From Alphaproteobacteria bacterium GM202ARS2 (lineage in GTDB: Bacteria > Pseudomonadota > Alphaproteobacteria > GM7ARS4), in contig JACONH010000001.1 of assembly GCA_014323835.1 (NCBI GenBank), positions 27,009 to 91,008 on the forward strand: a DNA stretch of 64,000 bases, in the 5' to 3' direction. The translations under genes were made by a program, and so were the position numbers. Below, in pieces: positions 22,562-24,303 of this stretch. Every line of letters starts with the position of its first letter. The first letter of the stretch is position 1. Below the pieces are notes generated by a model. It made no database searches. It was not told where the DNA came from and saw only the letters and a program-made list of their open reading frames with translations.

Positions 22562-23038
22562 TTACCCCTTCGCTCGTGGCGTTGCTGTTGCGCGGCGCGG
22601 CTCCTTGTCTTCGTTAAGAGTGCGTATCCGTTCTATGTTGGCAACAACTTTTTCCACTTTGTCTGGTGATACAGACGTCATGCGCTTTACACCATTGCGT
22701 GTTCCAAGATAAAACGACACGATAGCTGCCAGCACCGCCCACAATTCCTGCGGGATAAGTTTCATCCCCTGCATGACGACCGCAAACTGAATCGGGTCGA
22801 CCGCAACAAGCCAGAACAACGCCAGCACCGATATGACCAGCGAAGGACGTATAAGACGATTGATGCCGTCCACAAGCGAATCAAACCACGTCCGCCCCTG
22901 TATAGCCCGCCACTCGGCTTCAAACCGCTTGCCCGCTGCCAAATTCTCTTGGTGCTTACGAGCCTGCTCGTTTTCCGTATTGCCAAATATCGAAGACCAT
23001 AACTTACGCCCGCCATCAAGTATACCAGACCACATCAC
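22562..23038 (-). CDS. 3-TM holin of the GTA/phage type (PF11351-like)
   Basis: Hydrophilic N-terminus, then RTWFDSLVDGINRLIRPSLVISVLALFWLVAV...IPQELWAVLAAIVSFYLGTRNGVKRM. Both architecture and motifs resemble Rhodobacter GTA holin (...RPTLVYFGL...LPGEFWLAWGGVVGVWSLGRSAERMG). Confidence 0.55.
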   Translation of the reverse strand: MMWSGILDGGRKLWSSIFGNTENEQARKHQENLAAGKRFEAEWRAIQGRTWFDSLVDGINRLIRPSLVISVLALFWLVAVDPIQFAVVMQGMKLIPQELWAVLAAIVSFYLGTRNGVKRMTSVSPDKVEKVVANIERIRTLNEDKEPRRATATPRAKG

Positions 23039-23040
23039 AG

Positions 23041-24303
23041 CTACCCCGATTGAGCCGACGACGAGTCAATCATCTTGGCTCGAGGACGGAACGCCGCATC
23101 GAATTTCTCCAACATGGTAATAAGCCAATCGTGCTGATGCTGCCACGTATCCTTATTGTTGGGGTCTGCCGTCTTAACCAACACCACATGCGGGAATGGA
23201 CGCCCGGGCGAATCCAACCACTGCAGATTGACACCCACCTCCCACTCGATTTTTTCCTTTTGCTTCTGCAACAAGCCAAAATTCCGCCGCGCCTCAGGCC
23301 CCTGACACACCAAAGCAACAGAAATAGAGGATGGCTGCGAAAAATTCAAAACAGCAATCAAATAAAAGTTATGACAGCCAATATCATAGCTCGTCCATTC
23401 CTCAGGTGTCGCATTCGGCACAGAAAGCGCACTGCCCTTCTGTGTGATACGATCGCGCAAAAGCTGCCAGTATTCTTGTGTCATCGGTATCTGTTGCTCC
23501 TCCTGTTGAGGGTCTGCCGCCGCCTGCCCAATAGAAGCAATGAAATCACTCGGTATATGATGCGGCACACCCGTGTTCGTGTTCGCCGCCTGTTGAGCGG
23601 GGGCTTGAGGCTGGGACTGGGGCTGAACGGGAGCAGCAGCAGGAGCAGGAGCTTGAACGGGTGCCGCCGCCACCGGCGCTTCTGTCGCCACCACCGGAGT
23701 CTCTGCCACAGGCGCGGGACTCGGCGGCACCGCCGCCGGAGTCGCCTCAGCCGCTTGCTGATTACCCGCATCACGTGGATTAGTATGACCAGCCGTGCTC
23801 GTTGCCACAGCAAAACCCGCTGGTTTCGACACGACATCCAACCAAACCGCAGGGTCAGATTTGCCAATACGCCACATCCCCAATTCAACCCCAAAGAAGT
23901 TAATGCCCTCCTTCGTCATAAGATTCAAATTATCAAGAGCCTGTCTATGCTTATCGGTGAAAGGTGATGCCACCCACACAAACGTCAAATGGCGGATGCC
24001 GTCAATATCAGGGATAAGACGCTCTAGATCATCATGAGGATTCGGCGGACTATCGCCCAAGCGCGTCTGAATAGCGACAATGTGCTCTTCTTCGCCCTTC
24101 TCTCCTGCCACACGGCAGAGAACATCAGCAACAATGGGATGCTTGAGCTGCGCGCCATCGATACGTTCCAGCTTCAAGCCAAGAAAATCGCTCAAAGACA
24201 CCAACGTATCAGGCTCCGCCAACCACGACACAAAGCCCGCGTGACCATCACGCCAGACCTCCTGCGGGTTGACTGCCTCCAAGTTCCCTATACGAATGCT
24301 CAT
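23041..24303 (-). CDS. DUF4268-family protein: N-terminal PD-(D/E)XK-like nuclease fold with degenerate catalytic residues, Pro/Ala-rich linker, C-terminal DUF4268 domain
   Basis: The N-terminus matches the family pattern (W..G...F..WLAE...L...LGL.LE....; FVWVASPFTDKHRQALDNLN; FFGVELGMWRIGKSDPA). The usual ENQL is IQTRL. Linker PAAVPPSPAPVAETPVVATEAPVAAAPVQAPAPAAAPVQPQ. The C-terminus has a W.LL...-YDIG-F.L-I.V.L-NFGLL-KEKIEWE-WL pattern. Confidence 0.6.
   Translation of the reverse strand: MSIRIGNLEAVNPQEVWRDGHAGFVSWLAEPDTLVSLSDFLGLKLERIDGAQLKHPIVADVLCRVAGEKGEEEHIVAIQTRLGDSPPNPHDDLERLIPDIDGIRHLTFVWVASPFTDKHRQALDNLNLMTKEGINFFGVELGMWRIGKSDPAVWLDVVSKPAGFAVATSTAGHTNPRDAGNQQAAEATPAAVPPSPAPVAETPVVATEAPVAAAPVQAPAPAAAPVQPQSQPQAPAQQAANTNTGVPHHIPSDFIASIGQAAADPQQEEQQIPMTQEYWQLLRDRITQKGSALSVPNATPEEWTSYDIGCHNFYLIAVLNFSQPSSISVALVCQGPEARRNFGLLQKQKEKIEWEVGVNLQWLDSPGRPFPHVVLVKTADPNNKDTWQHQHDWLITMLEKFDAAFRPRAKMIDSSSAQSG

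Follow-up and report, generated by a model that had tools for sequence, protein, structure and literature searches.

A DUF4268 protein with a dead nuclease site and a solitary holin gene abut in Alphaproteobacteria bacterium GM202ARS2, probably by accident

Several enzymes that act against phage DNA join a nuclease to a DUF4268 domain. MdgA (NucS + DUF4268) and MdgB (PD-(D/E)XK + DUF4268) are single-gene, modification-dependent anti-phage nucleases, and the E77A change in MdgA abolishes both cleavage and defence (bioRxiv 10.1101/2025.02.28.640651). DUF4268 is also found as a C-terminal accessory of the GmrSD type IV enzymes, where it is predicted to bind DNA (PMC4619093, PMC5714182). The PADLOC collection contains a further candidate single-gene phage defence, PDC-S11, made of a NucS-like PD-(D/E)XK domain and DUF4268. 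Holins of the Pfam family PF11351 belong to a different setting. In the Rhodobacter capsulatus gene transfer agent (RcGTA), the lysis genes rcc00555-rcc00556 lie in the arrangement ccmE, lysin-holin, ccmF, separate from the structural gene cluster (PMC5026251). TeaA of phage ICP1, another PF11351 holin, has been tied experimentally to the timing of lysis, in a program that includes an antiholin (eLife 2020, PMC7182436). Here we describe a locus of Alphaproteobacteria bacterium GM202ARS2 in which a gene for a 420-amino acid (aa) DUF4268 protein is immediately followed by a gene for a PF11351 holin. The locus lies within a 64,000-nt stretch of contig JACONH010000001.1, referred to below as the window. 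A reading made from the sequence alone had taken the two genes for a new abortive-infection or toxin system, in which a nuclease-like sensor is coupled to a holin. Our analysis suggests that the pair is probably an accidental, lineage-specific juxtaposition of two unrelated genes and not a system.

GM202ARS2 is a 1.83-Mb metagenome-assembled genome (MAG) of 53% GC from a Lamellodysidea sponge, assigned to 'Candidatus Methylospongiales' and carrying type III secretion; the genome is reduced and the lifestyle host-associated (PMC7313196). The pair and the site presumed to drive it are laid out as follows.

23041-24303, minus strand: DUF4268 gene, 420 aa.
22562-23038, minus strand: holin gene, 158 aa with a GTG start, 157 aa with the ATG 23035 that the NCBI record uses.
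24343-24371, minus strand: candidate sigma-70-like promoter, TTTACA-17-TATCAT, matching 10 of 12 consensus positions; the DUF4268 gene begins some 40 nt downstream of it.

Both open reading frames (ORFs) are real as first described, on the same strand and separated by 2 nt (GTG start) or 5 nt (ATG start). NCBI records 100% identical to their products, and to a 245-aa protein encoded downstream, all come from GM202ARS2; the 420-aa entry is named "DUF4268 domain-containing protein". On consensus match alone, the site at 24343-24371 is the only promoter-like sequence positioned to drive the two genes, and neither a terminator-like site nor an internal promoter was called between them. The DUF4268 and holin genes are thus probably co-transcribed, and in this respect the proposal of an operon stands. 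The close spacing carries less meaning than it seems to. Unrelated same-strand neighbours in the window also overlap or lie 0-4 nt apart (MBL/tatD, where MBL stands for metallo-β-lactamase hydrolase, eno/kdsA/pyrG, tpiA/serS and argG/IalB), and because such tight spacing of unrelated genes is normal in this compact genome, the 2-5-nt gap is uninformative. As the sole promoter-like site lies upstream and no terminator separates the genes, the holin gene would merely ride along on the transcript of the DUF4268 gene and would not be its partner.

One line of evidence comes from a syntenic relative. Among 5.8 billion proteins, the 420-aa protein has a single close relative, P0002 (63-68% identity), encoded on a metagenomic contig from ENA, L001. 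Gene order on L001 is metG, tatD, MBL hydrolase, DUF4268, two small ORFs, lpxB, lpxI, lpxA, fabZ, lpxD, ompH, bamA; the flanks of the window locus, metG-tatD-MBL on one side and lpxB-lpxI-lpxA-fabZ-lpxD-bamA on the other, are therefore kept. A blastn comparison of the window with L001 finds homology in two blocks only, 27546->23042 and 21227->18003, the break falling at the DUF4268 stop codon. The DNA between these blocks includes the holin gene and two further elements.

21228-23040, no strand assigned: extra DNA relative to L001, 1.8 kb against 188 bp, with the holin gene, a dif-like site, an orphan gene and a 59-aa ORF.
22427-22454, plus strand: dif-like XerC/XerD-type site of 28 nt, CTACGCGATAA|GATATA|TTATGGTAAGT, between the holin block and the orphan-gene block.
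21530-22267, minus strand: orphan gene downstream of the holin gene, 245 aa, 0.428 GC; the motif HEFAH (HExxH) is conserved.

A tblastn search of L001 brought up nothing of either the holin or the orphan gene. No direct or inverted repeats flank the extra 1.8 kb, so it bears no mobile-element mark. Horizontal acquisition had been suggested for the entire segment; it is supported for the holin and orphan genes, because they are absent from the syntenic relative, and not for the DUF4268 gene. The AT-rich island of about 21.1-24.4 kb on which that suggestion leaned also holds in part. There is an AT-rich stretch at 21.2-22.5 kb (dipping to 0.385-0.45 GC), made up of the orphan gene and intergenic DNA, and a second, short one upstream of the pair at 24.0-24.6 kb. 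The two genes themselves have the GC of the window: 0.528 for the holin gene (0.566 at third codon positions, GC3) and 0.546 for the DUF4268 gene, against 0.526 for the window and 0.53-0.57 for the neighbours.

The same separation is seen beyond L001. PDC-S11 genes were sampled at 80 genomic loci with flanks of 4 kb on either side, many of them from alphaproteobacteria, and at 33 metagenomic loci, 790 kb in total. A hidden Markov model (HMM) of the holin detected a member of the window's holin family in 0/80 genomic and 0/33 metagenomic loci; the same model detected all of its positive controls, with E-values from 1e-66 to 1e-91. Conversely, the PDC-S11 HMM found no PDC-S11/DUF4268 gene in any of 80 viral holin loci. 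These results bear directly on the proposed module, in which the dead DUF4268 protein would sense foreign or modified DNA and license the co-transcribed holin to permeabilise the membrane. That proposal can draw on the shared strand, the 2-5-nt gap and the lack of an internal promoter or terminator call, and on the membership of the first gene in a candidate defence family whose architecture is proven against phage in MdgA and MdgB. Loss of catalysis under continued purifying selection (see below) also fits a sensor, and LypABC, an immune-type module that drives lysis for release of the Caulobacter GTA, offers a precedent. Set against this, the same dead-nuclease protein is kept in L001 without a holin, the dead subclade to which it belongs (P0014, P0017, P0047) is more widespread, and co-occurrence is zero over 113 + 80 loci. 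The holin gives no PADLOC match, the context is housekeeping rather than a defence island, and there is no known route by which a cytoplasmic DNA binder would gate a holin. With the gap uninformative as well, we regard a two-gene abortive-infection or toxin module as very unlikely.

The 420-aa protein is a clear member of the PDC-S11 family. Both PADLOC profiles match it in two stretches each, covering both domains (PDLC04912, E 4.9e-57; PDLC04911, E 4.1e-55), and PF14088 (DUF4268) matches residues 276-408 over profile positions 3-139 of 140 (E 2.3e-18, 67 bits for a cut-off of 27). The DUF4268 and PF11351 assignments made at first sight are thus both borne out by Pfam searches above the gathering scores. 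A full-length query for homologs was swamped by the low-complexity linker and returned 3 matches; the N-domain was used alone instead, and an exhaustive phmmer search with it gave 1765 clusters at E<=1e-3. Typical family members are mostly 310-340 aa long and consist of the N-domain and DUF4268, with no linker. The window protein is divided as follows.

23800-24303, minus strand: N-domain, residues 1-168, restriction-endonuclease-like NucS-like PD-(D/E)XK fold with the catalytic constellation replaced.
23497-23799, minus strand: Pro/Ala/Gln-rich linker, residues 169-269, with a predicted local distance difference test score (pLDDT) below 50, predicted disordered; 37% identity to L001.
23044-23496, minus strand: DUF4268 domain, residues 270-420, the most conserved part of the locus.

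An AlphaFold2 model made with 104 family sequences is confident at residues 1-168 and 270-420 and leaves residues 169-269 disordered, in keeping with the long Pro/Ala linker noticed at the outset. The DUF4268 domain is modelled as an alpha/beta fold resembling YktB/DUF1054 and the type III secretion system (T3SS)-chaperone/YbjN fold. No solved structure related by sequence was found, including in a search with a DUF4268-family profile.

In the N-domain, the predicted fold is present and the active site is not. The catalytic constellation of the family comprises E51, D60 and E79-N-Q81, accompanied by the conserved E20, D89-H90-x-H92 and E118. The family columns, scored over 150 representatives, are E20 (142), E51 (140), D60 (146), E79 (144), N80 (143), Q81 (145), H90 (144), H92 (141), G94 (148), Y99 (140) and E118 (125). 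The window protein has G20, A51, D60, Q79, T80, R81, H90, D92, E94, D99 and K118 at these positions, and also lacks G55, D89 (P89 here), T98, W125 and E142 (G142 here). Only D60 and H90 are retained among these, P89-H90-D-D92 standing in place of D89-H90-x-H92. Overall it matches 4 of 19 near-invariant columns, compared with 16-19 in 136 of 152 aligned family sequences, so that the degeneracy of the motif proposed from the sequence alone turns out to be more severe than claimed. The primer for MdgA E77A encodes VIV[E>A]NKLDD, which places E77 at the Glu of the (V/I)-E-N-(K/Q)-L motif and hence, by motif and not by alignment, at Q79 of the 420-aa protein. Because Gln replaces the Glu whose loss in MdgA abolishes activity, the 420-aa protein should be incapable of cleaving DNA. 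In two other members of the PDC-S11 family, P0012 (520 aa) and P0013 (648 aa), a canonical nuclease-like domain (IENQL...DH.HLGQ) is followed in tandem by a second, degenerate one (for example VIENHYGNADHDH and VIVSQYGMADLDH). This combination suggests that inactive nuclease copies have been recurrently kept in the family.

Loss of the active site has not been followed by decay of the gene. P0002 shows the same Q-T-R motif as the 420-aa protein. Comparison of the window with L001 used the proportions of nonsynonymous (pN) and synonymous (pS) differences in place of dN/dS, since saturation of the synonymous sites (pS at least 0.73) put the latter out of reach. Over the N-domain pN is 0.205, and over the DUF4268 domain it is 0.070. 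The latter domain is 87% identical to its L001 counterpart, as against 74-80% for the MBL, TatD (80%) and LpxB (74%) proteins. Both domains are under purifying selection, strongest on DUF4268. The degenerate N-domain and the linker recur, along with distinctive motifs of the C-domain, in at least three further clusters (P0014, P0017 and P0047), bringing the degenerate subclade to at least five clusters at 50% identity. The low pN and the existence of further clusters with the same degenerate N-domain indicate that this nuclease-dead subclade is maintained and not decaying. The protein may now bind or read DNA without cleaving it. Since the protein is kept in L001 where there is no holin, its selected function is independent of the holin.

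The second gene of the pair probably has a different history. PF11351 (GTA_holin_3TM) matches residues 5-114 of its product over profile positions 2-122 of 123 (E 7e-17, 62.5 bits for a cut-off of 24.8), and an HMM built from 6 homologs matches at E 4.5e-66. Hydrophobic segments (Kyte-Doolittle) lie at residues 61-90 and 94-111, as in the homologs P0005 and P0009, and the core motifs WFDSLVDGINRL.RP, DP..F, P..LW and SFY.G.R are kept. The protein is nevertheless divergent. Its nearest homologs are only 33-42% identical; it retains 20 of the 33 columns conserved at 80% or more, where the 63 full-length members retain at least 20 and typically 32 (the median), and it ties for the lowest conservation score among the 64 full-length sequences. 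It carries P62I in the near-invariant NRLPRP motif and an 11-aa N-terminal deletion, has lost the C-terminal N-A-x-x-x-W motif, and is about 30 aa shorter than the holins of RcGTA and phage cassettes. A tblastn search against 50,697 phage records (E<=1e-3) gave no match.

Elsewhere, holins of this kind stand beside a lysin. A GH108 + PG_binding_3 endolysin gene lies directly upstream in 3/3 of the nearest holin homologs with contig context. One of these is on a phage-like contig, one in a Mu-like prophage, and one at a chromosomal ccmE, GH108, holin, ccmF locus (L004) that reproduces the published RcGTA arrangement. In the 80 viral holin loci, GH108 abuts the holin upstream in 72 (67 by a strict distance rule plus 5 with a stop-to-stop ORF overlap). 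Of the remaining 8, at least four have another lysin beside the holin or fused to it.

L098: Peptidase_M15_3 upstream of the holin.
L149: M15-like domain downstream of the holin.
L116: GH19 upstream of the holin.
L144 (IMGVR_UViG_3300017527_000089), 2932-3720, plus strand: 262-aa fusion of a PF11351-type holin with an M15-like peptidase domain at its C terminus.

An adjacent lysin is therefore present in at least 76/80 viral holin loci. No peptidoglycan hydrolase gene stands next to the window holin, whose neighbours are the DUF4268 gene upstream and the HExxH orphan downstream. By tblastn the GH108 endolysin is absent from the 64-kb window, which contains no other endolysin and no phage or GTA structural genes; its only peptidoglycan enzymes are the housekeeping RlpA and SLT_2 proteins, 7-9 kb off and syntenic in L001. 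The sequence-only reading had allowed that the genes might be the remnant of an ordinary prophage lysis cassette, if the pair never recurred and an endolysin lay nearby: the pair did not recur in the loci sampled, and no endolysin was found in the 64-kb window. The missing lysin partner, together with its position as a lowest-scoring, divergent family member, suggests that the holin most likely has weakened activity or none, and is not a killing effector under regulation.

These properties also bear on two other accounts of the holin. In one, it would be functional with remote partners, either as a release gate for a GTA or prophage whose endolysin is unlinked, or in non-lytic export following the logic of type 10 secretion and TcdE; in the export variant the cargo might be the adjacent leaderless HExxH orphan, and in either variant the position next to DUF4268 would supply transcription only. 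The intact ORF, hydrophobic segments and core motifs are what this account expects, as are the host-like composition and a reduced genome with type III secretion and a host-associated lifestyle. The orphan gene lies directly downstream, a second paralog is present in the MAG, and the lysis genes of RcGTA are likewise apart from the structural cluster. It meets difficulty in the adjacent lysin of at least 76/80 viral loci, which each of the three nearest homologs placed on contigs has as well, in the lack of any lysin, GTA or phage gene in 64 kb, and in the loss of the C-terminal family motif. Moreover, a 294-bp gap containing the dif-like site intervenes before the orphan gene. We consider a holin with remote partners unlikely.

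In the other account, the holin ORF would be a non-functional relic awaiting deletion, still intact through too little time, and the extra 1.8 kb useless to the cell. The lowest conservation score among full-length members (20/33), P62I in NRLPRP and the lost C-terminal motif all suit such a relic, as do the missing partner lysin, the restriction of this holin to the GM202ARS2 MAG and the empty search of phage records. Against it, the chance of a 158-codon frame staying open is about 5e-4 by our own estimate, (61/64)^158, the composition is fully host-like, and reduced genomes purge dead DNA. We consider a pure relic similarly unlikely.

The 28-nt element between the holin and the orphan gene is the sole conserved intergenic piece in the comparison with L001 (24/27 nt match) and is unique in the window. 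Its layout, XerC arm / 6-nt centre / XerD arm, fits the proteobacterial consensus and agrees with that of the dif sites listed for alphaproteobacteria by Carnoy and Roten (PMC2731167); the 16-nt core, ATAAGATATATTATGG, is identical to the dif core of Agrobacterium tumefaciens (PMC2731167). L001 has two tandem copies, at 11320-11347 and 11269-11296 on the minus strand, with a common centre and XerD arm (GGTAGA|TTA[T/C]GTTAAGT) and differing XerC arms. The XerD arm of an L001 copy (TTATGTTAAGT) is that of the Rhodoferax dif site (PMC2731167, Table 1). No exact match to the dif-like site occurs in the viral contigs. Gene orientation converges at the site in both the window and L001. A replication terminus at this position is not supported, there being no change of sign in GC skew, in bulk or at four-fold sites, in the window or in L001; plus-strand skew at four-fold sites averages +0.17 on both sides and is positive (about +0.2) almost throughout, though the genes switch strand at 21.5 kb. 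Negative four-fold-site skew is a local anomaly of just four consecutive genes at 22.5-26 kb: holin (-0.40), DUF4268 (-0.42), MBL (-0.21) and tatD (-0.11). From its sequence, the element is a candidate Xer site and not an established dif, and may explain why variable DNA collects there.

The orphan protein has one homolog among the 5.8 billion proteins, a 64%-identical paralog from the same MAG (GDA50_00085); HEFAH is present in both. It has a zincin-like motif and no signal peptide. Pfam, NCBIfam, PADLOC and PDB gave no match, and PHROG matches were faint; an AlphaFold2 model from 2 sequences is unusable (pLDDT 42). Nothing supports the idea that the orphan protein might be the missing lysin. 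In a symbiont that carries a T3SS, it may instead serve as an effector specific to the lineage. A very basic putative ORF of 59 aa (21360-21539, minus strand) overlaps the orphan stop codon by about 10 nt and is absent from L001.

Taken together, the data are best accommodated by the following course of events. The first gene is a vertically inherited, catalytically dead derivative of the NucS-like nuclease + DUF4268 family (PDC-S11; MdgA architecture), and its place between the lpxB operon and the gene for the MBL hydrolase is older than the split of GM202ARS2 from its nearest relative. The second would be the surviving holin half of a phage- or GTA-type lysin-holin cassette. The holin and, separately, the AT-rich orphan would have been gained beside the dif-like site at a convergent-operon junction, or else lost from the relative. 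Abutting the DUF4268 stop codon, the holin gene would now probably be transcribed by read-through from the DUF4268 promoter. What we observed directly is the identity of both genes, the dead active site, the purifying selection, the absence of the holin from the relative and the lack of co-occurrence in either direction.

Several points weigh against an accidental juxtaposition and temper our preference for it. The junction is neat, a stop codon, 2-5 nt and the holin start, which insertion or deletion at random would seldom produce. Over its 158 codons the holin ORF is intact, with host-like GC and GC3, and in a reduced genome this speaks for long residence under some selection, that is, some function. 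With two genomes only, gain in the GM202ARS2 lineage and loss in L001 fit equally. The absence of lysin and GTA genes pertains to the 64-kb window rather than to the other contigs of the MAG, and the selection figures pertain to the 420-aa protein, the holin being without an ortholog. One could also imagine a young suicide or release module of the sponge-associated lineage, in which a dead DUF4268 DNA reader and a lysin-less holin have only lately been coupled beside an Xer (dif-like) site. If true, a defence or lysis system would here be seen just as it arises, and the absence of the pair elsewhere would be explained; we hold this to be highly improbable. Accidental juxtaposition remains the reading we favour.

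The wider neighbourhood is a housekeeping one. Outside 21.2-24.3 kb, the ORFs scanned in the window (1-64 kb) that have a Pfam match are all of housekeeping type; they include aroC, fabI, rpsB, tsf, pyrH, the lpx/bam cluster, metG, holB, tmk, rlpA, the SLT_2 transglycosylase and nadC/nadA; eno, kdsA, pyrG, tpiA, serS, tatC, scpAB, hflX, trkA, dusB and argG; and pccAB, rluC, rarA, rpoA, adk and secY. The pair, flanked by such genes, lies in neither a defence island nor a mobile element. No tRNA genes occur in the window and no Rfam families at 20.5-24.8 kb. At the end of the lpxB operon, 20885-21088 and 21085-21228 on the plus strand are overlapping small hydrophobic ORFs of 67 and 47 aa that resemble tandem paralogs (GLA.A.YA...GY.W.G.V.G.VSL); in L001 they are called genes, of 61 and 47 aa. 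Farther off, a 421-aa ORF (38517-39782, minus strand) in housekeeping surroundings contains a pair of DUF1508 (YegP-like) repeats (E 5.5e-34), the long rest of it being unassigned. A 603-aa ORF (4245-6056, plus strand) with no Pfam match at E<=0.01 lies between a glycine-zipper lipoprotein-like gene and rpsB.

The value of the locus is mainly negative, as it illustrates that tight spacing and a suggestive domain logic do not amount to evidence for a module, particularly where the genome is compact. Beyond that, the existence of a dead PDC-S11/MdgA-type subclade, conserved by strong purifying selection among housekeeping genes, suggests that DUF4268 proteins have been exapted for a role without cleavage, and provides a natural "E-to-Q" contrast for the study of DUF4268 recognition. 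The solitary holin and orphan HExxH genes flanking a dif-like site raise the possibility that accessory DNA builds up at an Xer site in a reduced symbiont genome.

The two genes compare with known systems as follows. The window holin shares PF11351 with rcc00556, the partner of the rcc00555 endolysin in RcGTA, and with the GH108-holin cassettes of phages, but lacks their upstream endolysin (none in 64 kb) and the ccm flanks. TeaA works within a phage lysis program, whereas the window holin is chromosomal and solitary. TcdE, type 10 secretion and CidA/LrgA provide precedents for holins outside the classical phage lysis cassette; to our knowledge, none of these has a DUF4268 or nuclease-fold partner, and no homology of the window holin to their families emerged, though no search was aimed at it. 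The upstream gene recalls GmrSD in that DUF4268 there accompanies a nuclease acting on modified phage DNA, as an accessory domain that probably binds DNA (PMC4619093, PMC5714182); GmrSD uses DUF262/DUF1524 HNH modules, in contrast to the PD-(D/E)XK fold, inactive here, of the window protein. Likeness to MdgA and MdgB, judged by motif only, is closer: each is a single ORF joining a NucS- or PD-(D/E)XK-type nuclease to DUF4268, and MdgA has E77 in VIVENKL where the window protein has Gln (family motif (V/I)ENQL). The nearest counterpart is PDC-S11, with a full-length HMM match, the same order of two domains and the same folds. From it the window protein differs in the replacement of nearly all family-invariant polar nuclease residues, in a disordered linker of about 100 aa inserted between the domains, and in the setting of its gene, which lies in conserved housekeeping surroundings and not in a defence island.

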